Below the pieces are notes generated by a model. That model was not told where the DNA came from and made no database searches. It saw only the letters and a list, made by a program, of their open reading frames with translations. From NCBI GenBank assembly GCA_963767925.1, contig CAVYGB010000002.1, positions 2,016,001 through 2,080,000 of the forward strand: a stretch of DNA of 64,000 bases, written 5' to 3'. Both the position numbers and the translations under genes were made by a program. Of this stretch, positions 7,133-22,821 are shown one piece after another (position 1 is the first letter of the stretch; the number at the start of each line of letters is the position of its first letter). The stretch is from an uncultured delta proteobacterium. GTDB lineage: Bacteria > Myxococcota_A > Polyangia > Fen-1088.

Positions 7133-8956
7133 CTACGGGCGCACGGCGCGCTCGAGCTGCAGCAGGGTGGGGCCGAGCTCCGTGCGGAGCAGCTCGTCGA
7201 GGTGCCAGAAGTGGAGCTGGCGGTCCTGCTCGTAGAACCAGCCGAGCACGAGGACGAGCAGATCGATGCAGGTGCGCGGGCAGCGCCAGCGCTGGCTGGC
7301 CTGCACCGGTCCGCAGGCCGCGTCGGCCTCGTCGAGGAAGCGGGTCAGCGCCTCGGTGAGGGCGATCATGCCCAGCATCACCCGCTGGGCCAGGTTGACC
7401 GCCAGGGTGGGCGGGTCGGCGGGGCTGAGCGGGGGCCGGGTCATGCGGGTCTCGAACACCGGCAAAAACTCGATCGCGATCGCCTCCAGGGCCACCGAGA
7501 CCGCCTCGGCCAGCCCGTCCCGCGAGACCCCGGCGGCGGCCAGCTCGGCGGTGAGGCGGCGGGCCTCCGAGGGGGCGTCGAGCAGCCGGCGGTAGGGGCG
7601 GGTGGCGGCCCGCAGCAGGCTCTGGGTGTCGCGCAGGCTGAGGTCGGTCTTGAGGGGGGCCTCGGGCAGCAGCGAGGAGGTGGGCAGGGGCGGGTCGGCG
7701 GGGCCCCGGCGGCGCACGTATTTGTGCTCGACCAGGTCGGCCAGCGCCTCGGCCACCACGACGTTGAGGGCCAGGCGGATCCGGCCGCGCAGGTCGTTGC
7801 GCACGACCCGGCCGAGGATGTCCCGGTCGATCGTCACCCCCTCGTTCCCGGGGACGAAGGCGTCGCGCAGCACCGGGCCCGGGTCGCTGCCGGCGTCGGC
7901 GAAGCGGTTGCCGCTGGCCGGGGTGACCGGGTCGCGCAGCTCGATCAGGCGGGCGTAGGACCACTCGAAGTCGCACAGCGATTCTTCCCAGCCGTGGCCC
8001 CACAGGTCGTGTACGAGGAACAGCTCCGCCTTCTGGGCGGGGATGAGGGTGACCATGGTGGCGAGCGTCTCGGCCACCACCCGCGGGCGCACCCCCTCGA
8101 ACCCGCGCAGGGAGGCCGCCGCCCGGGTCAGCTCGTCGAGCAGGGCGCTGTCGACCTCCTCCCGCTCGTACAGGCCGAACCCGGGGAAGCGCAGGCTCTC
8201 CAACGAGCCCTGCTGCTTCTCCACCCGGGCCAGGAACTGGGTGATGGCGGTGCGCTCGGCCTCGGGGCGGGCCGGGAAATCCGGGCGCAGCAAGGTGCTG
8301 CCCTCGAAGGGCAGGCCGAAGATCAGCGCCGTGCTGGTCAGCGTGAGGGTGACGTCGCCCGCGCGCAGGGGCAGGGGTCCGAACAGGCGGCGGAACAGGG
8401 CCAGCACCTGGGCGGCGAGCTGGGGCGAGCCGGCGGCGGCGTCCACCTCCCGGTGCAGCCGGGCGGTCAGCGTCTGCTTGAGGCGGAGGTTGGACGTCCG
8501 GCTCTGCAGGGCGCTCTCCAGGCGGGACAGCTCGGGCGAGTCCCAGCCGAAGCAGCGCTGGAGGGCGTTGCGCAGGGCCCCCCGCTCGGCCAGATCGCCC
8601 CGCAGGTCGGGCTCGAACCCGCGCAGGGTGCCGCTGCTGTGCCCGTCGACCAGGACGCGCCCGCCCGCCTGGGCGAAGTCGGGCCACAGCAGCGCCGCCT
8701 CGGTGAACCAGCGGATGTGCTTGTCGCTGCCGGGGGTCAAGGTCGGTGGGCTCTGGCCGGCCAGGGGGGCGGCCGCCCGCAACAGGCCGTCGACGATGGC
8801 GCCGGCCTGCCCCCGCCGGACCGAGTCGGGCGGGGCGGGCCGATCGAGCAGGGCCTCCAGCTCGGCCAGCCCGTCGAGCAGCGGGCGCCAGGTGCCGGGG
8901 ACCTCCCGCTCGAAGAGGGCCGCGTCGGTCAGCGGATCGGGCGCCTTGCCGCTCAC
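7133..8956 (-). CDS. Unknown 607-aa soluble protein with possible metal-binding HDLWGH...E motif
   Basis: GTG start overlaps the ABC ATPase stop (GTGA); [13 protein letters not shown] and downstream [10 protein letters not shown]. Confidence 0.7.
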
Positions 8957-9828
8957 ACGTCCACCGTGAGGGTGCCCCGGCCGTGCTGCCCGGTGGCCCC
9001 CCGGATGAGGGAGATGATCTTCTGCTCGAGCTGGCTGCATTCGGCCGAGCGCAGCCAGCTATCGGGCCGGGGCTTGGGGGCCGTCACCGGCATGTCGGCG
9101 ACGATGCCGGCCGGTCGGGTGGACAGCACGAGGATGCGGTCGGCCACCCGCAGGGCCTCGGTCACGTCGTGGGTCACGAACAGGGCCAGGCAGGGGAACC
9201 GCTGCCAGAGCTGGATGACGAGGTCCTGCATCTCGAGCCGGGTCTGGGGATCGAGGGCGGAGAACGGCTCGTCGAGGCACAGGATGCTCGGCCGCAGCAC
9301 CAGCCGCGCGGCCAGCGCTACCCGCTGCTGCATGCCCCCCGAGAGCTGGCGCGGGTACATGCGGGCCGAGGCGCTCAGCCCCACCGCGGCCAGCATCTCC
9401 TCGGCCCGCTCGCGCCGCTGGGCGGGCGGCACCCGCGCGCCCCACAGCTCCGAGCGGAAGGGGAGCAACACGTTCTCCTGCACGTCGAGCCAGGCCTTCA
9501 GCACCGGGCGCTGGAACACCGTGAGGACGTCGTCCTGGGGGCCCTGCACGACCCGGCCCTTGATCTTGACCTGCCCCTCGGTCGGCATCGGCGTGCGCCG
9601 ATCGTACATCCCGGAGATGGTGCGCAGGATGGTCGACTTGCCGCAGCCCGAGGGCCCCAGGATGCAGAGGGTGGCCGGGCGGTCGACGCCGAAGGTGATG
9701 TCGACAAGCACGCGGTTGGCCTGGCCGTCGTCGCCGGTGTAGTCCTGGCTGACGTGCTCGACCGCGAGCAGCCGTTCGCCGCTGTCGGCGGCGGGAGGGG
9801 TGCGGGGGGCGGGGGGGGTGGCCGACAT
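8953..9828 (-). CDS. ABC transporter ATP-binding protein (NitT/TauT type)
   Basis: Walker [31 protein letters not shown]. Confidence 0.95.
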
Positions 9829-9834
9829 GGTCGA

Positions 9835-10614
<780 letters not shown>

Positions 10615-10634
10615 GCCCCCCTCCTCTGCGCCCG

Positions 10635-12206
<1,572 letters not shown>

Positions 12207-12267
12207 GGTGACCTCACGCTGCATGATACCATTGATGGCAGGCCCGGTCGCCGCGCGCGGACCGCCC

Positions 12268-13095
12268 ATGGACGAGGTTAAAGAGGAAAAGAAGCGCAAG
12301 CCGTTCAGCCTGCTCGAGCGGGCCTTCTTCAACCAGTACAACTACATCCTGCTCGGCAGCGCCGCCCTCTACGCCCTGGCCACCCAGTCGTTCTTGCCGG
12401 TCATCGTGGGCCTGGGGGCCGAGACCCTCTGGCTGGTGCTGGGGGCCGACAGCGGCCCCTTCCGCCGCTGGGCCGATCGCCAGGAGGAGAAGGAAGCGCT
12501 CGAGCGCCTGGAGAAGGACATGGCCATCTTGCTGGCCGGTCTGCACGAGCACCACGCCGAACGGTTCCTCGTGCTGCGCCAGATGGTGGCCGAGATCGGC
12601 CGCCTGGCGGTCGAGAACAAGGGCATCGAGACCATGCTCCTGCGCGACGAGATGGCCAAGCTGGGCCAGCTCCTGCTGTCGTTCCTGCGCATGGCCACCA
12701 TGAGCCAGCGGCTGCAGGCCTACCTCGACGAGAGCCTGGGCAGCGACATCGAGCGCGACATCGCCCGGGCCCAGCGGGCCCTGCGCAGCGAGGGGGATCC
12801 CCGGGTGCAGGCCAGCTACAAGCAAGCTCTGGCCCTGGCCCAGCGCCGGCTCAAGCAGCACGACCAGATCGAAAACGCCCGCAAGGCCATCGTCGTGCAG
12901 ATGGACACCCTGGAGAAGGCCCTCGGCTTCCTCAAGTCGCACATCATGGGCATCGGCTCGCGCGACGAGCTGGCCAAGGAGCTCGACGGCCTGGTGCTCG
13001 GCGTCTCCTCGGTGGCCGAGCTGGAGGCCGCGGCCGACGAGGTCCTCACCGACGTGCGCATCACCGGCCAGGCCGCCCAGGCCGTCCGGCGCTGA
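12268..13095 (+). CDS. Membrane-anchored coiled-coil protein (XpaC-like or divergent ESCRT-III-like)
   Basis: Two N-terminal TM segments then ~200 aa of helical/heptad sequence; divergent from the ABC-OmpA operon with a 61-bp gap. Confidence 0.75.
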
Positions 13096-13111: not shown

Positions 13112-13474
13112 TCAGGGGGCGGCCAGCAGGTCGGCCAGGGCGGTCTCCAGGCCGTGCAGGGTGAAGGGCTTCTCGATGAAGCGGCGGCGGGCCGGATCCG
13201 ACTGCCCGGGCCGGTACTCCTCCCGCCCGTAGCCGGACATGAAGAGGATGTACAGGCCGGAGCGGGCCGCCTCCAGGTCGTCGGCCAGGTCGAGGCCGCT
13301 GGCCGCGCCGAGCTGCAGATCGAGCACGACGAGGGCGATGGCTGGGTCGGCCGTCAGGGCCTGCCTGGCCCCCTCCGCGTCCCGGGCCTGGGCGGTGCTG
13401 TGGCCCAGGATCTCCAGGAACTGAGCCGTCAGCCGCCGTAGCTCGTCGTGATCGTCGACCACCAGCGCGCGCAC
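13112..13474 (-). CDS. Single-domain response regulator
   Basis: LVVDD, VVLDL, FMSGY, KPF. Confidence 0.9.
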   Translation of the reverse strand: MRALVVDDHDELRRLTAQFLEILGHSTAQARDAEGARQALTADPAIALVVLDLQLGAASGLDLADDLEAARSGLYILFMSGYGREEYRPGQSDPARRRFIEKPFTLHGLETALADLLAAP

Positions 13475-13480
13475 GGGCTG

Positions 13481-14143
13481 CTAGGGCTCGACCAGGTGGT
13501 TGCGGATGGCGTAGCGGACCAGGTCGGGGATCGAGCGGACCGCCAGCTTCCGCATCAGATTCGAGCGGTGGCTCTCCGCGGTCTTGCCGCTGATCCCCAG
13601 GGTGGCGGCCACCTCCTTGGTGCTGTGGCCCTCGGCCAGGAGCTGCAGCACCTCGCGCTCGCGGGAGGTCAGGGTCTGGGTGGTGGCAGGGGCCAGCTCC
13701 TCGGGCTGGGGACCGCTGTGCAGGTACCCGCGCAGGACCAGCTCGGCCACCCGGGCCGAGAAGAAGGGGCGCCCCTGCTGCAGGCCCTCGACCGCCGACA
13801 CGAGGTCCTTGGCGGCGTCGCTCTTGAGGATGAAGCCGCGGGCCCCCGCCGCCAGCACCTCGCGCACCAGGTCCTCCGAGTCGCGCGCCGACAGGATCAG
13901 CACGGCGGTGCGGGGGGCCTCGTGCAGGATCCGGCGCGTCGCCTCGAGGCCGTTGAGCTCGGGCATGGCCAGATCCATGATGACGATGTCCGGGTGCAGC
14001 TCCAGCGTGCGCTCCACCGCTTCGCGCCCGTTCGACACGTCGGCGACGACGGTCCAGTCCGTCCCCTGCTCGAGCAGCGAACGCAGGCCGGCCCGCACGA
14101 TCTCGTGATCATCTGCGACGAGGATCCTCACGCTCGAAACCAC
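13481..14143 (-). CDS. NarL/LuxR-family response regulator
   Basis: ADDHEIVR, IMDLAMPELNG, LTSREREVLQLLAEG HTH. Confidence 0.95.
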   Translation of the reverse strand: MVSSVRILVADDHEIVRAGLRSLLEQGTDWTVVADVSNGREAVERTLELHPDIVIMDLAMPELNGLEATRRILHEAPRTAVLILSARDSEDLVREVLAAGARGFILKSDAAKDLVSAVEGLQQGRPFFSARVAELVLRGYLHSGPQPEELAPATTQTLTSREREVLQLLAEGHSTKEVAATLGISGKTAESHRSNLMRKLAVRSIPDLVRYAIRNHLVEP

Positions 14144-14180
14144 GGCACCCCCTCGAGAGCCAGCCGCTGATTGTAAGGGA

Positions 14181-14789
14181 TCATGGGCGCCCGGGAAACC
14201 TGGCCTCGATCGAGGTGCCGCCCGGGCTGCGCAAGATTCGCAGGTTCCCGCCGGCTGCCCGGGCCCGCTGGCGCAGGCCCAGGGTGGCCAGGTCCAGGGC
14301 GGCGCCCCGGCGCATGCGCCCCTGCAGGGTCACCTGCACCCCCGCCCCGGCGATCGAGGTGACCCGCACGCTCACCGAGGCCTCGGTGGCGAAGGCCCCG
14401 GCGAGCGCCTCCTGTACAAGCCGGAACACAACCGCCTGCACCTCGGGGTCGATCGGCGCGGTTGTCTCGACGGCCACCCGCAAGCGGATGGCCCCCTCGC
14501 GCGCCGCCAGCCAGCCCAGGGCCGAGCCGAGACCGTTGCCGCCCGACCCAAGCGGGTACAGGCTGTGCGACAGGTCGCCGACCTCGCGGCAGGAGGCCGC
14601 CGCCAGCTCCTGGGCCTTGGTCAGGGCGGTCCGGGCCGCCGCCGTCAGCCCGGTGGCGCTGCGCTCGACGAGGGTGAGGTTCATCGAGACCGCGGCCATG
14701 GTCTGGGCCGTCGAGTCGTGCAGCAGCCGGGCCAGCCGCCGCCGCTCCTCGTCGCCCGCCCGCTGCAGCTCCGCGCACAGCCGCGCCAT
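14181..14789 (-). CDS. Sensorless HisKA_3 protein with degenerate HATPase (pseudokinase/phosphotransferase)
   Basis: EERRRLARLLHDSTAQ H-box; N-box reads QEALAGA and there is no DxGxG; start may be TTG 14837. Confidence 0.75.
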   Translation of the reverse strand: MARLCAELQRAGDEERRRLARLLHDSTAQTMAAVSMNLTLVERSATGLTAAARTALTKAQELAAASCREVGDLSHSLYPLGSGGNGLGSALGWLAAREGAIRLRVAVETTAPIDPEVQAVVFRLVQEALAGAFATEASVSVRVTSIAGAGVQVTLQGRMRRGAALDLATLGLRQRARAAGGNLRILRSPGGTSIEARFPGRP

Positions 14790-14865
14790 GAGGGCCGCCG
14801 CCCCCTTGCCCGCTCGAGCGTCCTTCCGCGCCGCCAACCTTGCGATACCGACCCCCGCCCCGCGA

Positions 14866-15465
14866 TCAGCGCTTCCGGGGCCCCGAGCCGGGGCCCTCGC
14901 TGACGTAGCCGAAGAACATGCGCGCCCCCTGCAGGCGCGACTCCTCCACCACACACTGTGCGCGCACCGACTCCAGATCCTTCTGCAGACCCTCGATAGC
15001 GGCCCGCTGCTCGTCGATCTGGCGCTGCAGCTCGTTGATCGTCGCCTGCCGTTCACCCACCGCCTTCTCGCTGTCGGCCCGCTTGGCGTCGGCCACCGCC
15101 CGCACCACGTCGATCTTGCGGCCGGAGTCGGTGATGACGTCGGCCGGCGACTTGCCGATGGCGCCCAGGAAGGCCCTGGCGGCGGCCAGCTTGGACGTGT
15201 CGGGCAGGTTCGAGTCCAGGCCCCCCAGGAACCGCTCGAGCGCCTCGACCTCGTCGGTGTTGGGGATGCCGGCCTGATCGTAGAGGGTCTGGAAGTCGAT
15301 CGACCCGGTCAGCCCGGCCGGCGCGGTCCCCTCGGGCAGGGCCACCACCGGCTCGGGCGCCTCGGGCAGCGCATATTTTTCCAGGTCCGCGAGCACCTGA
15401 TCGGCGGTCCGGCCTGGCGTGTCCGCCACGATGAACACCGACTTGAGCTTCTGGCCCCAGGACAT
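14866..15465 (-). CDS. Hypothetical protein with N-terminal amphipathic helix and C-terminal coiled coil
   Basis: MSWGQKLKSVFIV start; ~60-aa heptad C-terminus (INELQRQIDEQRAAIEGLQKDLE). Confidence 0.8.
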   Translation of the reverse strand: MSWGQKLKSVFIVADTPGRTADQVLADLEKYALPEAPEPVVALPEGTAPAGLTGSIDFQTLYDQAGIPNTDEVEALERFLGGLDSNLPDTSKLAAARAFLGAIGKSPADVITDSGRKIDVVRAVADAKRADSEKAVGERQATINELQRQIDEQRAAIEGLQKDLESVRAQCVVEESRLQGARMFFGYVSEGPGSGPRKR

Positions 15466-15517: not shown

Positions 15518-16636
15518 TCAAGCCACGTCGATGTCGAGGCCCAGCGCCACCCGGCCGACCAGCCGGTTGGCCTGCGGCTCCTGCAGCGGGTGGTAGCGCA
15601 CCCCCTGGGCGTCGCGGAACAGCCGCTCGAGCCCGGCCGAGCGAAAGAAGCTCCCGCCGCCCGCCACCGCCAGGGCCCGGTCCACCGTGGCGAGGACCGC
15701 CCGGGCGAAGACCGTGCGCCGGGACATCACGGCGGCGGTGGCGGCCGGTCCGGGCTTGTCGCTCTTGACCAGGTCGACCAGGCCGGCGTGGGCGAGCTGG
15801 GCGACGAGCAGCTCGTTTTCGAGCTCACCGACCGCCGGGGCGGTGAGGGGATCGTTCTTCTTGCGGGCGGCGAGCTGCAGGGCCACCTCGCGGGCCGCCT
15901 CCGCCACCCCCAGGTAGGCGGCGAAGAAGACCGGGAAGGCCACCAGCGAGACGGTGTGCATGAAGGGGTGCCACTTGCCGGCTGGCCGGCGCACGCCCCC
16001 CATGGCCGCGTCGGGGAGGAAGACCCCGTCGAGCTCGACGTCGTGCGAGCCGCTGCCGCGCATGCCCAGCACCCGCCAGGTGTCGAGGATCTTCACTCCC
16101 TGGGCGTCGAGCGGGACCGGAAAGTGGATCACGGTGGGCCCGTTCTGGGGGTCGTCGTACACCCCGGTGGTCATCAGCAGGTTGCCCTGGCCGACGCCGC
16201 TGGCGAAGATCTTGCGGCCGGTCAGGCGGAAGCCCCCCTCCACCTTCTCCAGCTTGCCCGAGCCGGTCAGCCAGTCCGCCCCGCCGGTGCTGATGAGGAC
16301 CAGCTTCTCGGCCGCCACCCGCTTGAGCAGGCCCTCGGGGGCCTTGTTGCCCGAGCGCCACAGGTAGGCCAGCGTCGCCACCAGGTGGCTGTGCATCGAG
16401 AAGGCCAGCGCGGTCGAGCTGCACGACCGGGCCATGGTCCGGACGAAGGCGCACAGCTCGGGGTGGCTGACGTCGCCGCCCCCCAGCTCGCCCGGTACGC
16501 CGGCGCCGAAGGCGCCTCGCTCCTTGAGGAGCGCGTAGTTCTCCTCGACGAAGCGGTCGTCGGCGTCGTGCTGGGCGGCGCGCTCCGCGAAACGCGGCCC
16601 CAGCTCCTGCATCACGGCTCGCCAGTCGAATCCCAT
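15518..16636 (-). CDS. Acyl-CoA dehydrogenase-fold flavoprotein (flavin-dependent monooxygenase-like)
   Basis: VPGELGG, LTGRKIFASG, GMRGSGSHDV, LERLFRDA. Confidence 0.9.
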   Translation of the reverse strand: MGFDWRAVMQELGPRFAERAAQHDADDRFVEENYALLKERGAFGAGVPGELGGGDVSHPELCAFVRTMARSCSSTALAFSMHSHLVATLAYLWRSGNKAPEGLLKRVAAEKLVLISTGGADWLTGSGKLEKVEGGFRLTGRKIFASGVGQGNLLMTTGVYDDPQNGPTVIHFPVPLDAQGVKILDTWRVLGMRGSGSHDVELDGVFLPDAAMGGVRRPAGKWHPFMHTVSLVAFPVFFAAYLGVAEAAREVALQLAARKKNDPLTAPAVGELENELLVAQLAHAGLVDLVKSDKPGPAATAAVMSRRTVFARAVLATVDRALAVAGGGSFFRSAGLERLFRDAQGVRYHPLQEPQANRLVGRVALGLDIDVA

Positions 16637-16870
16637 GGGCTCCTCCTCTTGCTAGTGGACTGCGCAGCGGCAGCATGCTCCCACGTGTGGAGCGGCATGC
16701 TGCCACTTTTGCGCCCGGCCGGGGCGTCAGGAAACGCCGGGGTGTGGGTGATTTCCTCTCCGCGGCCCGGGGTGTCCCCGCTGTAAGGCGCTGTGTTCTG
16801 GCCCTGGCGCCCGACTTCCAGTTGTGCACCGGCCTGGGATCTTGCGTACGATAAAGGCCGGACGGGGTGC

Positions 16871-17275
16871 ATGACGACGAAGTTGCGGGAGCAGGGAGCG
16901 CGGGTTCTGGTGGTGGACGATAGCGAGGAGATGAGGGCGGCCCTTCGCCGCATGCTCGCCCCCATCGCCTCCGAGGTGTTCGAGGCCCGCAACGGGGTCG
17001 AGCTGATGGCGGCGGTGGCGGGCGAGACGCCCTTCGACCTCATCGTCACCGACGTGCGCATGCCCTGGATGAACGGGCTGGGGGCGGCGACGACAATCCG
17101 GAGGGCCGGGATCGACACGCCCCTCATCATCATCACCGGCTACTCCGACGCGGAGACCGGCCGGCGGATCGAGACGCTGCCGCGGGCGTCCCTGCTGCGC
17201 AAACCGTTCACGGGCGAGGAGCTGATCGCCGCCGCCCGGGACATGCTGGCCGCCGCTGTGCCGGCGGCGTCTTAG
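16871..17275 (+). CDS. Single-domain response regulator
   Basis: LVVDD, VTDVRMP, ITGY, KPF. Confidence 0.9.
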   Translation: MTTKLREQGARVLVVDDSEEMRAALRRMLAPIASEVFEARNGVELMAAVAGETPFDLIVTDVRMPWMNGLGAATTIRRAGIDTPLIIITGYSDAETGRRIETLPRASLLRKPFTGEELIAAARDMLAAAVPAAS

Positions 17276-17279
17276 CGGT

Positions 17280-17654
17280 TCACTCGAGTTGCAGTCCGCA
17301 GTCGGAGCAGGCGCCCGAGACGAGCGGGGCGGCGGTGCCGCAGGCCGGGCAGGGGGCGTGTTCCCCCTCCGGCTCCGCCGCTGCCCGCCGCTCGCCCTCG
17401 AAGGTCCCCTCGCGCTCGAGGAGCTGCCACCAGCGCTCGGAGAGCAGCTTGGCCACCCGGGGGACGTCCTCCCTGGCCACCAGGACCTGGATCTTGGGGG
17501 CACAGGCGCAACCGTTCTTGCCGCAGCAGTCGGCCCGGGCCAGCAGCGCTTCGACCTCGATCTCCTCGCAGGCCGCCGCGATCTCCTTGGCGTCGGGCAG
17601 CGCCGCCGTGATGCAGGAGACCATCTGCGGTTCCTGGTCAGCGTCGTTTTCCAC
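17280..17654 (-). CDS. Small Cys-rich protein with C-terminal zinc ribbon
   Basis: CCGKNGCAC cluster and CPACG...CSDCG. Confidence 0.75.
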   Translation of the reverse strand: MENDADQEPQMVSCITAALPDAKEIAAACEEIEVEALLARADCCGKNGCACAPKIQVLVAREDVPRVAKLLSERWWQLLEREGTFEGERRAAAEPEGEHAPCPACGTAAPLVSGACSDCGLQLE

Positions 17655-17727
17655 GGCCGGCAGTCTACCAGCCAGGCCACTGGATCTTGGTGACGACCGT
17701 CGTATGGTCCCTTGCAAGGAGCCTGAC

Positions 17728-18123
17728 ATGAGCGGCCTGCAACAAACGGTGATGGTGGTCGACGACGACGAGGACATCCGCGAGAGCCTCACGCTGGTGC
17801 TCGGTCAGCGCGGGTACCAGGTCATCACCGCCTCGGACGGTGCGGAGGCGCTCACCCTCCTGCGCAACGCCACCCGAGAGCCCTGCCTCATCTTGCTCGA
17901 CCTGATGATGCCCGGCATGAACGGGTTCCAGCTTCACCAGGCCCTGACCGCCGACCCGGTCCTGTGCACCGTCCCGGTGGTGGCCATCACCGGCGCCGGC
18001 CCCAGCGTGCAGCGCCGCTCCCTCGACCTCAACCTCGAGTACCTGCCAAAGCCCTTCGACTTCGCCGCCCTCCTGGACGTGGTGCGCCGCTTTTGCGCCG
18101 GCGCCGTGATCACCCCGAGCTGA
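17728..18123 (+). CDS. Single-domain response regulator
   Basis: MVVDDD, LLDLMMP, KPF; AAGGAG RBS. Confidence 0.9.
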   Translation: MSGLQQTVMVVDDDEDIRESLTLVLGQRGYQVITASDGAEALTLLRNATREPCLILLDLMMPGMNGFQLHQALTADPVLCTVPVVAITGAGPSVQRRSLDLNLEYLPKPFDFAALLDVVRRFCAGAVITPS

Positions 18124-18219
18124 CCTGCTCGTTTGCGGGGTAGAGGGCGAGGGAAGGGGCAGGGGCGGTCGCCACCCCGGGCACCCGAACAGGCCGGGGC
18201 GCTAGACTCGTCGTCGAGC

Positions 18220-19089
18220 ATGGCGCTGGCGGAGCAAACCACCCGGGTGGTCCGGGGCCGATCCGAGGGGGGCTCCTGGGAGCTGATCTTCGGGCGCTGC
18301 CACCCCGCCCTGGCCCCCTACGTCCGCCAATATTGCGGCTACCGCGAGCGCACGCCCGCCCCGGTGCGCCGGCTGGAGATGCCGGCCGCCCAGGTGGTGA
18401 TGATCCTCGACTTCGGCCCCACCCTGCGGATGCTCGACCCCGTCGACGGGCGGCTGATCGTCCAGCACCCGGGTGGGTTCCTGGCCGGCCTGGACGACGG
18501 CTTCACCCTCACCGAATCGACCGGCGAGATGGACGGGATCCAGGTCAACTTCACCCCCATCGGCGCGCGCCTGCTGGTGGGGCGCCCCATGCACGAGGTG
18601 GCCCGCCAGGTGATCAGCCTGCCCGACGCCTTCGGGGCCGACGGCCGCCACCTGAGCGAGGCGATCGGCGAGACCCGGGGCTGGGCGGCCCGCTTCCGCC
18701 GGCTCGATGACCTGCTGCTGGCGCGGCTGCTCGGTGCCCAGGCCCTGCCGGGCTGGGTGGCGACGGCCTGGGATCGCATCGAGCGCAGCGGCGGCGCCAT
18801 GGACGTCGCCCGCCTGGTCAAGGAGATGGGCTACAGCCGCAAGCACCTGGCGGCGGTGTTCCGCGAGCACGTGGGCATGCCGCCCAAGGCGGTGGCCCGC
18901 CTGGTGCGGTTCCAGCGGGCGCTCGAGGCCCTGCGGGGCGGGGCGCGCGGCGACCTGGCCCGGCTCGCGCTGGAGCTGGGCTATTTCGACCAGGCCCATT
19001 TCACCCGGGAGTTCCGGGGCTTCTCCGGGATGACGCCGGCGGAGTGCCGCCGGCGGTGGCGCCCCGGATCGCTCGGGATCGCCGGGTAG
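18220..19089 (+). CDS. AraC-family transcriptional regulator
   Basis: C-terminal double HTH, GYFDQAHFTREFRGFSGMTP. Confidence 0.92.
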   Translation: MALAEQTTRVVRGRSEGGSWELIFGRCHPALAPYVRQYCGYRERTPAPVRRLEMPAAQVVMILDFGPTLRMLDPVDGRLIVQHPGGFLAGLDDGFTLTESTGEMDGIQVNFTPIGARLLVGRPMHEVARQVISLPDAFGADGRHLSEAIGETRGWAARFRRLDDLLLARLLGAQALPGWVATAWDRIERSGGAMDVARLVKEMGYSRKHLAAVFREHVGMPPKAVARLVRFQRALEALRGGARGDLARLALELGYFDQAHFTREFRGFSGMTPAECRRRWRPGSLGIAG

Positions 19090-19173
19090 GGCCCGGGCCC
19101 CGGGGTAACAAACGTACAAGCGGTGGGCGGCGGGCCCACCTACCCTGGGTGGGCAACCAAGAGGAGGACCACC

Positions 19174-19626
19174 ATGAGCGACAAGGTTTCGACAGGCGCC
19201 GGCGGCTACATCATGCCCTACCTGAGCTGCAAGGGCGCCGCGCAGGCGATCGAGTTTTACCTGCGGGCCTTCGGGGCCCGCGAGGAGTACCGCCTGACCA
19301 TGGACGACGGGCGGATCGGCCACGCCGAGCTGCTGATCGGGGCGGCCCGCTTCGGCGTGGCCGAGGAGTTCCCCGAGCTGGGGTTCAAGAGCCCCCTCAG
19401 CTACGGCGGCTCCACGGTGACCCTGCACCTCTATGTCGAGGACGTGGACGCCTTCTTCGCCCGGGCCCGGGAGGCCCAGGCCAAGGTGCTCGAGGCGCCC
19501 AGGGACGAGTTCTACGGCGACCGGGTGTGCCGGCTGGGCGACCCTTCCGGCCACGTGTGGATGATCGCCACCAAGAAGGAGGAGGTCTCGCCCGAGGAGA
19601 TGCGCCGTCGCATGCGGGGGGCGTGA
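19174..19626 (+). CDS. VOC family protein (PhnB-like)
   Basis: PYLS..GAAQAIEFYLRAFGA, FYGDR, DPSGHVW. Confidence 0.92.
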   Translation: MSDKVSTGAGGYIMPYLSCKGAAQAIEFYLRAFGAREEYRLTMDDGRIGHAELLIGAARFGVAEEFPELGFKSPLSYGGSTVTLHLYVEDVDAFFARAREAQAKVLEAPRDEFYGDRVCRLGDPSGHVWMIATKKEEVSPEEMRRRMRGA

Positions 19627-19718
19627 GGGGTTGCGCCACCGCACACGCGCCGACACCGGCGCCGTCGGGGCGGCCGATTGCTTTTGAGGCAGGTGGGCAA
19701 AGCGCCTAAAATGTCGCC

Positions 19719-20429
19719 ATGTCCGAAGGCGGCGGTTTCTTCAAGCGTCTGAACAACCTGTTCCGCGGCTTTCTCAGCCTCTGGATCTCCGACGTCGAGA
19801 AGGAGCACCCGGAGATCGCCTACGAAAACGCCATCAACGCCATGCTGGAGAAGTTCGCCCGGCTCAAGCGGGCGACCGCCGCCATCATCCGCCGGCGCGA
19901 CGAGATCCAGGAGCGGTTCGGCAGCCAGTCGAGCGAGCTGGCCCAGGTGAGCGCCGACCTCGACGTGGCGGTGCAGACCGCCCGGGACGACCTGGCCCTC
20001 ATCCTGATCCAGAAGAAGAACATCCTCGAAAAGGAAGTGGCCGAGCTGAAGGTGGAGCTCGAGACCGCGGCCCGCGACGCCGACGAGGCCAAGGCGGCCC
20101 TCATCCAGGTGCAGGCCGAGATCAAGAAGCTCAAGGCCGAGAAGGACAACATGCTGGCCAAGATGGAGAGCGCCAAGGCCCGCGTGCGCATCCAGGAGCA
20201 GCTCGACGGGCTCTCGGTGGACGCGGAGGTCAAGGCCCTGGAGAACGTGCGCGGCCACATCAAGAACACCATCGCCCAGGCCAACCTCGGCAAGGAGCTG
20301 GCCGACACCTCGCTCGACGCGAAGCTGCGCCAGCTCCGCTCGCAAACCGGCGAGGTGACCGCGCGCAACCAGCTCGACGACCTCAAGGCCAAGCTCGCCG
20401 CCAAGAAGGCCGCGCAGAAGACGATGTGA
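19719..20429 (+). CDS. pspA: PspA/IM30 (ESCRT-III superfamily) protein
   Basis: 236 aa all-helical; amphipathic [11 protein letters not shown] start, conserved E..P, A...R.DLA motif, LDAKLRQL...LDDLKAKL C-terminus. Confidence 0.9.
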
Positions 20430-20442
20430 CGGTCGGGGGGAG

Positions 20443-22359
20443 GTGCGCGTGGCGGTGAGCGGCGACAAGGGCGGGGCCCGGCCCCCGGCGGGCAAACATC
20501 CGGGCTGGGCGGAAGAGCTGCGGCGCCGCTACCTGCGGGGCGAGGCCAGCCAGTTCATCCTGCACGGCAACGTGTTCGACGTTGTCGAGTGGGCGGGGGA
20601 GCTGCTGCCGCTCGGCGAATATCTCACCGAACACCTGCTGGGCGAAAACAAGGACACCATCGTCGTGTTCAACCTCGCCACCGGGGGTCGCACCGTGCGG
20701 CGCAAGGTGGACCTGGGCGGGCTGGAGGACCTGCTCGGGCAGCGCCAGCCGGCCAAGTTCCTGCCCGCCATGGAACGGCTGCTGAAGACCGGTCAGCGGG
20801 TGGCGCTCATCATCGAATACGCCGAGACGGTGGCGCCGGCGGCCGACCCGGCGCTCATGCAGGACGACGACCGCACGGCGGTCGTGACCTTGCACCGCTG
20901 GTCGATGTCGCCGGAGATCGAGGCGGCCGACAACGTCGTGCTGCTGCTGGCCGAGACCCTGTCGGAGCTTCACCCCAAGCTGGTCTCCAACCCCAAGATC
21001 GCCACCGTGCGCCTGCCGATGCCCGACGAGGAGACGCGCCGGCGGGTGGTGGCGGTCTGCCAGCCGGAGGCCGATCCGGCCTGGCGCGATCGGCTGGCCG
21101 CGATAACCGCCGGGCTGCGGGCGGTGCAGATGCAGGCCATCTTGCAGCCGGCCCCCGGGGCCCAGGACCAGGCCAGCGAGGAGGAGCGGGTGCGGTTCCT
21201 CGAGGGGCTGCTGGCCCCGGCGGGCGCGGCCCGGCCCGCCGATCTGGAGGTGCGGGCCCGCAAGCTGGCGGGGCTGACCCGGGGCATGTCGAGCGAGGAG
21301 GTGCGCACGCTTATCGCGCCCGAGGCCGGCCCCGACCCGGAGGCGGGGGTGGAGGAGGCCCGGCGCCGGCAGCGCGACGAGATCGACCGGCTGATCGCCC
21401 ACCGCAAGCGCGAGATCATCGAGCGGGAGTGTTACGGGCTGATCGAGTTCGTCGATCCGGGGCACGACTTCCGGGTGGTGGGGGGCATCGAGGCGGTCAA
21501 GGCCGAGCTGCAGCGGATCGCCCGCAACATCCGGGAGGGCAACGTGGCCCGGGTGCCGATGGGGCTGCTGTTCACCGGGCCCATGGGGGCGGGCAAGACC
21601 TTCGTGGCCGAGGCGTTCGCCAAGGAGTCGGGGCTCACCACCATCAAGCTGAAGAACTTCCGCAGCAAGTGGGTGGGGGCCACCGAGGCCAACCTCGAGC
21701 GGATCTTGCAGGTGGTGCAGGCCATCGGGCAGGTGCTGGTCATCATCGACGAGGGGGACCGGGCCTTCGGCAACCAGACCGACGGCGACGGGGACGGGGG
21801 GACCTCCTCGCGGGTCATCGGGCGGCTCAAGGAGTTCATGTCCGACACCAGCAACCGGGGGCGGGTGCTGTTCATCCTGATGACCAACCGCCCCGACAAG
21901 CTGGACGTCGACATCAAGCGGGCCGGCCGGCTCGACCGGAAGATCCCCCTGCTCTACGCCCAGAGCGCCGAGGAGGTGGAGGCGGTGATCCTGGCCCAGC
22001 TCCGCAAGCACCGCTTCGAAAACGGCCTCTCCTTCCCGGCCGATCGGGCGGCCCTGTCGGCCCGGATGCTGGGCCTGTCGAACGCCGACTTCGAGGCCAT
22101 CGTGCTGCTGGCGGGCGAGCTGGCGGCGGCCGCCGGCCCCGAGCAGCGCACGCCCCGGCTCGACCGGGGCCTGCTCGAGCAGGCCATCGCCGACTACCTG
22201 CCCTCGCGCGACACGAAGATGCTCGAATACATGGAGCTGCTCGCGGTGTTCGAGGCGTCCAACCGCAAGATGTTACCCGCCAAGTACCAGACCATGAGCG
22301 CCGAGGAGCTGCAGGCCCGCCTGGACCTGCTGCGCCTCGAGTGCGGCAACCGGAGGTGA
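20443..22359 (+). CDS. AAA+ ATPase with degenerate N-terminal and intact C-terminal AAA module
   Basis: GPMGAGKT Walker A, SKWVG pore loop, IIDEGD Walker [21 protein letters not shown]-half ([16 protein letters not shown]) lacks a P-loop. Confidence 0.9.
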
Positions 22360-22362
22360 CCG

Positions 22363-22821
22363 ATGGAGTTTTTCCCTGAGCTCGAGGTGAGCGCCACCCA
22401 GGCCGAGGCGATCGCGCGGGGGCTGTACGCAGTGGCCCTCGTCGACGGCCTGCACGAGCGCGAGCTGGCCCTCATCTCCGACTTCTTCGGCAACACGGTC
22501 GAGGACGGGCGCCCCGAGCACGTGGGCGCCGCCGCCCTGGCCCGCCTGGGCCCCCTCGAGCCGGCCGCCCTGGCGGCGGTGCTGGCCGGTCAGGCCCACC
22601 GCGAGCTGTTCCTGAAGACCGCCTACCTGCTGGCCTGGGCCGACGGCCAGGTCTCGCCCGGCGAACGCACCACCATCGACGCCTTCGCCGCCGCCCTCGC
22701 CCTCGGCGCCGACACCGGCAAGCGCCTGGAGTCGGAGGTGAAGGACTACCTCCTGCGCCCCTTCGCCAGCCTGATCAACGTGGAAGGCGCCGCCGCCATC
22801 GCCAAGAAGCTGGGGCTGTAG
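22363..22821 (+). CDS. TerB-like protein (two internal TerB-like repeats)
   Basis: AVALVDGLHERELALI and LLAWADGQVSPGERTTI; starts 3 bp after the AAA gene stop. Confidence 0.7.
   Translation: MEFFPELEVSATQAEAIARGLYAVALVDGLHERELALISDFFGNTVEDGRPEHVGAAALARLGPLEPAALAAVLAGQAHRELFLKTAYLLAWADGQVSPGERTTIDAFAAALALGADTGKRLESEVKDYLLRPFASLINVEGAAAIAKKLGL

Follow-up and report, generated by a model that had tools for sequence, protein, structure and literature searches.

A pspA, tandem AAA ATPase and TerB-like gene trio in a soil myxobacterium as part of a candidate membrane-maintenance module

In a 64,000-nucleotide (nt) stretch of contig CAVYGB010000002.1 from an uncultured soil myxobacterium (Fen-1088), hereafter the window, whose coordinates are used throughout, three adjacent genes on the forward strand encode a PspA-family protein of 236 amino acids (aa) (pspA, 19719..20429), a tandem AAA ATPase of 638 aa (20443..22359) and a TerB-like protein of 152 aa without a hydrophobic segment (22363..22821). 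The best explanation for this trio, to which we give an even chance, is that it belongs to a multi-gene membrane-maintenance module whose ATPase would remodel PspA polymers, making it a candidate for PspA recycling. In support stand the intact motifs of the second ATPase module (D2), a first module (D1) without a P-loop, the gene order, the co-occurrence of the two genes across genomes, a constraint on the PspA tail and the TerB-PspA-AAA order of some relatives. The data set out below establish which genes are present, how their domains are built, that the catalytic motifs are intact, that gene order is conserved and that the genes co-occur across genomes. A first-pass annotation had taken the three genes for an operon encoding a dedicated disassembly ATPase of a bacterial ESCRT-III; this interpretation is a reasonable hypothesis that the sequence data partly support, the genetic coupling being strengthened and the boundaries of the system corrected.

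Domain anatomy of the ATPase

Pfam places an AAA domain (PF00004, 88.9 bits) at residues 375-502 of the ATPase, and the active-site elements of this D2 module (21577..21936, forward strand) are intact. They comprise Walker A, GPMGAGKT (residues 379-386, 21577-21600), the sole Walker A in the protein; the pore loop SKWVG (residues 408-412, 21664-21678), which aligns with SMWYG of Cdc48 D2; Walker B, LVIIDE (residues 432-437, 21736-21753); and the second region of homology, TNRPD...RAGRLD (residues 481-498, 21883-21936), which contains two arginines and whose RAGRLD segment aligns on the arginine-finger region. The degenerate first AAA-fold module covers approximately residues 20-330 (20500..21432, forward strand), with FILHGNVFD (20554-20580) at the position of the P-loop. 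The protein thereby has the architecture described as "inactive AAA + classical AAA", with two AAA-fold modules in one chain, of which the N-terminal one lacks ATP-binding motifs. The dead N-terminal module, the active classical module and the aromatic pore loop that had been read from the letters alone are all borne out.

The same pattern holds across the family. A search with residues 1-345 (E<=0.001) returned 961 clusters, and the full-length proteins among the best 150 gave 47 representatives. Exactly one GxxxxGK[ST] is present in 44 of these 47, always in the C-terminal module, and none is found by pattern in the other three. Residues G379, G382, G384 and K385 are invariant among the 47 sequences, and D436, E437, R493 and R496 are conserved in at least 90%. 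The family also has its own conserved, helical C-terminal extension.

An AlphaFold model of the ATPase (pLDDT 90.5, pTM 0.85) is consistent with this anatomy, residues 16-600 aligning in a fold search with D1+D2 of Rix7, p97, Drg1, NVL, Pex1/6 and VAT. The individual matches include Rix7 (7swl_A, Z 23.8, root-mean-square deviation (rmsd) 6.2, 477 aligned residues), p97 (5c18_B, Z 23.7, 450 aligned residues), Drg1 (7nku_A, Z 23.4, 463 aligned residues) and Pex1/6 (8u0v_A, Z 23.1, rmsd 4.9, 500 aligned residues). Vps4 superposes on D2 (3eih_A, Z 23.3, rmsd 3.5, 269 aligned residues), and single-ring enzymes rank level with the tandem proteins in Z over D2 only. The top sequence matches among solved structures are Cdc48/p97 D2 rings (E 2e-38). 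In NCBIfam, the ranking is headed by CDC48 (TIGR01243; 68.8 bits, cut-off 802.65), followed by PAN (58.7), FtsH (54) and CdvC (NF041006, 38.8 against 650). Because all of these scores are far under the family cut-offs, the ATPase represents a distinct family within the classical clade and not an orthologue of CDC48, PAN, FtsH or CdvC.

No GAFTGA motif was found by motif scan, and neither Sigma54_activat (PF00158) nor a helix-turn-helix (HTH) family was found in Pfam, so the earlier separation of this protein from the sigma54 activator PspF holds. Pfam likewise gives no MIT family (E<=0.01), no Vps4_C and no AAA_lid_3, and in the model the AAA fold of D1 begins at about residue 20, leaving no MIT-like domain ahead of it. 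Sequence and model together identify a classical-clade AAA ATPase whose first module lacks a P-loop and whose second is intact.

Coupling of the ATPase to a divergent PspA

The pspA product matches PspA_IM30 (PF04012) with 64.4 bits against a cut-off of 33.9, residues 7-224 spanning profile positions 2-216 of 220. The score for the canonical-PspA equivalog, TIGR02977, is 39 bits against a cut-off of 242.95, and tblastn finds no similarity (E below 10) between this protein and the two other PF04012 genes of the genome. It represents a divergent, highly conserved PspA/IM30 subfamily: identity among related module loci is 62-81%, though the GC content of these loci ranges from 0.53 to 0.72. The conservation extends to the extreme C-terminus, where the window protein ends in ...AAQKTM behind an Ala/Lys/Gln-rich helix. 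All 51 complete module-linked PspAs (loci L005-L112) end in K-[T/S/V]-[M/L/V/I], and 23 of them in QKTM. A fixed C-terminus of this kind is what would be expected of a tag read by an unfoldase, and the tail may be a recognition tag.

Relatives of the locus were fetched through close relatives of the ATPase (40-85% identity), which gave 29 genome and 79 metagenome loci, the metagenome scan using a 13-row alignment. Since relatives at 54-88% identity occur in more than 100 loci, the trio genes are not chance open reading frames (ORFs). Within the clade of the window's ATPase, PspA lies upstream on the same strand in 37 of 39 loci (15/17 from genomes and 22/22 from metagenomes), counting those whose sequence reaches 4.9 kb or more upstream of the ATPase. 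The two that miss it are L028 and L029, and the genome of L029 has an orthologous PspA, of 70% identity, on another contig. The fetched loci are the best-scoring relatives and not independent lineages, related genomes share history, and no statistical test is claimed. The gene immediately upstream of the ATPase was scored in the 75 loci with at least 900 bp of upstream DNA: in 69 it is either PspA (14) or a membrane-anchored helical protein that we call X281-like (55), and in six it is neither.

Co-occurrence was followed in a phylum sample of 201 genomes, in which the N-terminal module of the ATPase (E<=1e-15) is found in 53 and the PspA profile (E<=1e-20) in 72. By hand comparison of the two tables, both genes are present in 50 genomes, the ATPase only in three, the PspA subfamily only in 22 and neither in 126. 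The three ATPase-only genomes are those with the three weakest ATPase matches, and the 22 PspA-only genomes all have weaker PspA scores (E 1e-38 to 1e-56). Where the ATPase is unlinked, the PspA subfamily was located elsewhere in 5/5 genomes, and it was found in 0/5 ATPase-less genomes checked. On the same contig, the unlinked ATPase and PspA lie about 41 kb apart in G018 and G171 (both of family f21) and about 28 kb apart in G201 and G176.

Forty of the 52 ATPase places outside our own genome were scanned with PspA, X281-like, TerB-like and ATPase profiles. PspA is nearby in eight, only an X281-like or TerB-like gene in two, and none of the partners in 30. Eight of these 30 were examined further: four lie near obg, two of them also with rplU, and no PF04012 gene was found among the ORFs scanned at the eight places.

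These unlinked ATPases form their own branch of the family. In a FastTree phylogeny of 86 rows from 149 sources (>520 profile positions kept, Shimodaira-Hasegawa-like support, midpoint root for drawing only), the window ATPase belongs to a 50-row clade with support 96, in which a partner gene is nearby in 47. The unlinked ATPases make up a separate 32-row clade with support 99, composed of 31 unlinked sequences and L139. The first-pass annotation had named an ATPase commonly found without pspA as evidence that would speak against its reading; this description fits the sister clade (30 of the 40 fetched places) and not the clade of the window (37 of 39 linked). The members of the sister clade (L118-L148, same phylum) are dead-D1 tandem AAA ATPases of about 570-590 aa whose surroundings contain neither a PspA gene nor an X281-like or TerB-like one, and their match to the N-terminal module of the window protein stops at about residue 237. 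The segment at about residues 238-345 may accordingly be specific to the PspA-linked clade. As judged from these sequences, the ATPase-PspA link is conserved both by gene order in its own clade and by genome co-occurrence, and it holds where linkage has been lost.

The classical partners of PspA are missing from the locus, as had been claimed: no pspB, pspC or sigma54 activator gene lies within the window. Two PspC-domain genes are present in the genome on another contig, PspB was not found genome-wide (the genome is 84% complete), and none of the 68 genome-wide sigma54-activator matches falls inside the window. Passages of a 2025 review (PMC7619361) describe how E. coli PspA binds and inhibits the AAA+ protein PspF. 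PspA could by analogy be a regulator of the ATPase here and not its substrate, holding it inactive until membrane stress, whereupon the freed ATPase would act on other clients, e.g., damaged membrane proteins. A regulator-target pair would fit the conserved linkage and co-occurrence as well as an enzyme-substrate pair, and the sister clade in housekeeping contexts near obg and rplU suggests an ability of the family to handle general clients. However, PspF is a member of another AAA+ clade, and the extreme C-terminus of PspA, strictly conserved in 51/51 copies, resembles a recognition tag more than it does a surface for regulation. We consider this regulatory explanation rather unlikely.

The larger module and its accessory proteins

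The coordinates of the trio and its annotated intergenic gaps of 13 bp and 3 bp were reproduced in the ORF list. The GGGGGGAG stretch lies immediately against the GTG at 20443, which makes the GTG at 20449 the likelier start of the ATPase and the first gap probably 19 bp; the database copy of the ATPase has 636 aa. A GGAGG ribosome-binding site stands 6 nt ahead of the TerB-like ATG, within the 3' end of the ATPase gene. The junctions look operon-like by sequence. A promoter-like site, TTGAGG-17 nt spacer-TAAAAT (19684..19712, forward strand; one site found against 0.1 expected), precedes pspA, and a terminator-like hairpin (19661..19678) lies 3' of the upstream glyoxalase gene; neither is more than a match to a consensus. 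Between the end of the -10-like hexamer and the pspA ATG there are 6 nt, and 19684-19719 shows no Shine-Dalgarno sequence, a layout in which the pspA message may be leaderless. By Pfam, the flanking genes are unrelated in kind to the trio: on the upstream side are glyoxalase and AraC-type genes, and downstream follow a LysR-type gene in convergent orientation and a YceI gene.

The relatives place the trio in a wider context. They show a long form, in the order P199 (a 199-aa protein of unknown family), PspA, PBPB(NMT1)+OmpA, permease, ABC ATPase, X281-like and ATPase; a medium form of PspA, X281-like and ATPase; and a short form, which includes the window, of PspA followed directly by the ATPase. 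The partner genes of the long operon were all recovered upstream in the same window by tblastn of our own genome and Pfam. On the reverse strand are the ABC transporter ATPase (8953..9828; ABC_tran, 97.8 bits), the permease (9835..10650, start approximate; BPD_transp_1, 67 bits) and a fusion of an NMT1-like periplasmic solute-binding domain with an OmpA peptidoglycan-binding domain (10635..12341, Pfam). Their counterparts in the long-form relative L019 are 43% identical, 39% identical and 30% identical over 560 aa (L019:794-2464), respectively. The X281-like gene (12268..13095) is on the forward strand, with 31% tblastn identity to L019:4135-4980 and a hydrophobic stretch at about residues 42-61 of its product. 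P199 is encoded on the reverse strand (14866..15465) and has matches in 18 of the 108 loci; it stands directly 5' of pspA in long operons and divergent beside pspA in the closest relatives. No Pfam family passes for P199, and the Atlas gives hypothetical-protein clusters only.

A compact relative, L035, carries the permease (-), PBPB-OmpA (-), X281-like (+), P199 (-), PspA (+), AAA (+) and TerB-like (+) genes inside 8.5 kb. Compared with such relatives the window has two insertions, one of kinase and regulator genes (13112-15056) and one of six unrelated genes (15518-19626). The three genes are real and tightly packed, but the first-pass annotation overlooked that the trio is, on the evidence of these gene orders, a core transcription unit or fragment of a larger conserved module, putatively for membrane maintenance, the remaining genes of which are found upstream in the window.

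Several further features of the region may be mentioned. The first insertion, on the reverse strand, contains a HisKA_3 kinase (14181-15056, start probably further in), a receiver+LuxR/GerE regulator (13481-14143) and a single-domain receiver (13112-13474). All three are located immediately downstream of P199, on its strand and in the interval that separates it from the X281-like gene, and they are scored as an insertion because comparable genes are absent at that point in L035. In Firmicutes, PspA-like genes are regulated by HisKA_3/NarL-type pairs such as LiaRS. Just 3' of the ABC ATPase gene, and like it on the reverse strand, is a 635-aa ORF without a Pfam family (7133-9040), which in 70% GC DNA could be a spurious frame. 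Another contig of our own genome (G000:C8:2250017-2253725) has a second PBPB+OmpA gene (33% to L019) and a second X281/X265-like gene (24-26%), and tblastn finds no ATPase of the window family there. In locus L086 the module is rearranged, with the ATPase followed by a P199-like gene and then PspA.

The X281-like protein corresponds to the gene directly 5' of the ATPase in most relatives, which is labelled "SIG+TM+Snf7" in passages of Ravi et al. 2024. We did not reproduce the Snf7/ESCRT-III label: hhalign against the PspA alignment gave a probability of 0.46%, and the profile searched against PDB returned nothing relevant. The model (pLDDT 80.9) consists entirely of helices, with a hydrophobic hairpin of helices leading into a long helical bundle. 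Foldseek gave no match at E<=0.001, and a wide fold search returned generic helical or BAR-like rows (Z<=11.6) with no ESCRT-III among its 50 rows, helical folds being hard to place.

Given its position immediately upstream of the ATPase in 55 of the 75 loci, and its copy in the window, the X281-like protein could be the primary client of the ATPase, which would remodel its assemblies, or its membrane anchor, with PspA and the wall-tethered ABC transporter acting alongside in envelope maintenance. The hairpin and bundle of the model would suit this role, the best fold matches being BAR, F-BAR and I-BAR proteins at Z 9-11.4. These matches are, however, below the noise mark of about 13 for helical proteins, the Snf7 label was not recovered, and the gene is detached from the ATPase in the window and its nearest relatives, where pspA adjoins the ATPase. 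A leading role for the X281-like protein therefore seems improbable to us.

The third gene of the trio belongs to the TerB superfamily with good likelihood as judged from sequence. The window protein scores 21.3 bits to PF05099, just under the cut-off of 24.4, and the copy in L019 scores 32.6 bits. All 19 orthologues match PF05099 at E<=0.01 (best E 3.1e-10), and the family profile matches PDB 2ou3, a COG3793 tellurite-resistance protein, with E 3e-5. A TerB-like gene lies 3' of the ATPase in 35 of the 85 loci with at least 550 bp of downstream DNA. It follows the ATPase in 11/13 short-form loci and in 16/16 X-type genome loci, which are named Myxococcota or relatives, and in 0/36 X-type metagenome loci. 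Three loci (L149, L150 and L151) have the alternative order TerB-like, PspA, ATPase, and their ATPases form a separate third clade. The distribution identifies the TerB-like gene as a lineage-restricted accessory with a real association to the module.

A TerB-type domain in the third gene also invites a tellurite-resistance interpretation, and the ATPase has a weak match in PADLOC to the phage-defence protein IetA (best 35.7 bits) and in NCBIfam to IteA (31.6 bits against a cut-off of 510). It is very unlikely, in our judgement, that the cluster is a phage-defence or tellurite-resistance system or that the adjacency of the trio has no functional meaning. The IetA and IteA matches span the generic AAA core only and fall well short of family level, PADLOC gives no match for PspA, P199 or X281-like, and no other ter genes were found among the window ORFs scanned with Pfam. 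Gene order and co-occurrence are, moreover, conserved well past chance level. The defence-system interpretation was rejected on the ground that PADLOC gave only weak, generic AAA matches.

Proposed mechanism and comparison with known systems

The module would be built around the specialised PspA, which forms polymers and belongs to the ESCRT-III superfamily. The ATPase is presumably hexameric and Cdc48-like, with a structural first ring and a second ring that alone would burn ATP. It would engage PspA subunits and draw them through its aromatic pore loops, entry being perhaps by the strictly conserved C-terminal Lys-Thr/Ser-Met tail. Extraction or unfolding of subunits would in turn remodel or recycle membrane-bound PspA polymers, a Vps4-type job for ESCRT-III done by a different, Cdc48-type enzyme. 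In Myxococcota the TerB-like protein may modulate or target the reaction, and further parts would be supplied from elsewhere in the window, namely the membrane-anchored helical protein, the 199-aa protein and the ABC transporter with its wall-tethered binding protein. We infer that the ATPase forms a hexamer, that PspA is its substrate, which way the chain is threaded and what part the TerB-like protein plays.

A number of points weigh against PspA remodelling by this ATPase. Contact between the two proteins is hypothetical, and related genomes are not independent samples. The commonest direct neighbour of the ATPase is X281-like and not PspA (55 versus 14 of 75). At the thresholds used, there are the three ATPase-positive genomes without a PspA match and the 22 with a more distant PspA and no ATPase match. 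By hand comparison, pspA is within 5 kb of the ATPase in only 15 of the 52 other ATPase-positive genomes, and partner genes are absent within about 8 kb in the 30 of 40 fetched places noted above. Neither Pfam nor the model shows an MIT-like domain in the ATPase, or any other separate domain for substrate recognition. Finally, passages of Junglas et al. 2024 report that PspA rods have their own weak ATPase activity, and a motor is for this reason not strictly required.

In a bolder and more doubtful form, which we offer only tentatively, bacteria would have built a polymer-motor pair from a Cdc48-like tandem AAA protein independently of archaeal Vps4. The PspA tail would be the threading tag, the TerB-like protein would gate the motor on a membrane or metal-ion signal, and the ABC transporter and the helical protein would position the machine at envelope damage.

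The idea of a PspA motor with a Vps4 analogy is already in print. In passages of Ravi et al. 2024 (mSystems, PMC11237479), neighbourhoods of PspA with "inactive classical AAA + classical AAA" are predicted from genomes, and ATP-dependent remodelling is proposed and likened to Snf7 and VPS4. An entry of its supplementary table, OGG56892.1, has the gene order of the long form. The main text of the paper does not mention "TerB" (0 occurrences). Elsewhere, a passage of the 2025 review (PMC7619361) states that a Vps4-like ATPase "appears absent in bacteria", the account given in passages of Makarova et al. 2024 confines vps4 + ESCRT-III systems to archaea and eukaryotes, and the possible helpers discussed in passages of Junglas et al. 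2024 are PspF and chaperones only. These texts describe bacteria without an ESCRT-III partner motor, and the candidate module bears on the disassembly of PspA and Vipp1 polymers in the cell. No bench test of this ATPase was found in the literature searched, whose coverage leaves out most subscription journals, and no paper on a PspA-TerB module was found by title among the best 15 of 117 literature matches.

Three elements are new relative to the published prediction: the compact pspA-AAA-TerB form of the module, the persistence of the pairing as genome co-occurrence where gene linkage has been lost, and the conserved PspA C-terminal tail as a specific handle for mutagenesis. The module also offers a small defined set of soluble proteins for the direct study of ATP-driven PspA remodelling.

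With the neighbourhoods of Ravi et al. the window shares the ATPase architecture and the PspA link; locus L019 has the published long order, and all components are present in the window. The likeness to the published examples (AEY64320.1 and others) was judged on architecture and gene order. The window differs in the layout of its module, which is divided among at least three transcription units across 14 kb and has pspA joined directly to the ATPase gene, and in its added TerB-like gene. The E. coli PspF-PspABC system likewise pairs a PspA-family protein genetically with an AAA+ protein, whereas the window ATPase is no sigma54 activator, the locus is without pspB and pspC, and its PspA is far from TIGR02977. 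The tandem AAA fold over residues 16-600 is common to Cdc48/p97/VAT, Rix7, Drg1/Afg2, NVL and Pex1/Pex6. Unlike the type II Cdc48/p97 enzymes, the window ATPase has no N-terminal substrate/adaptor (double-psi barrel) domain, no P-loop in D1 and no AAA_lid_3. As with Vps4/CdvC, a classical-clade AAA protein that carries an aromatic pore loop has its gene next to that of a polymer-forming ESCRT-III-superfamily protein, and D2 superposes on Vps4. The window ATPase differs from Vps4/CdvC in lacking MIT and Vps4_C, in having two AAA modules and not one, and in a sequence nearer to Cdc48/p97 D2. By these sequence comparisons, it is an analogue and not an orthologue of Vps4/CdvC.

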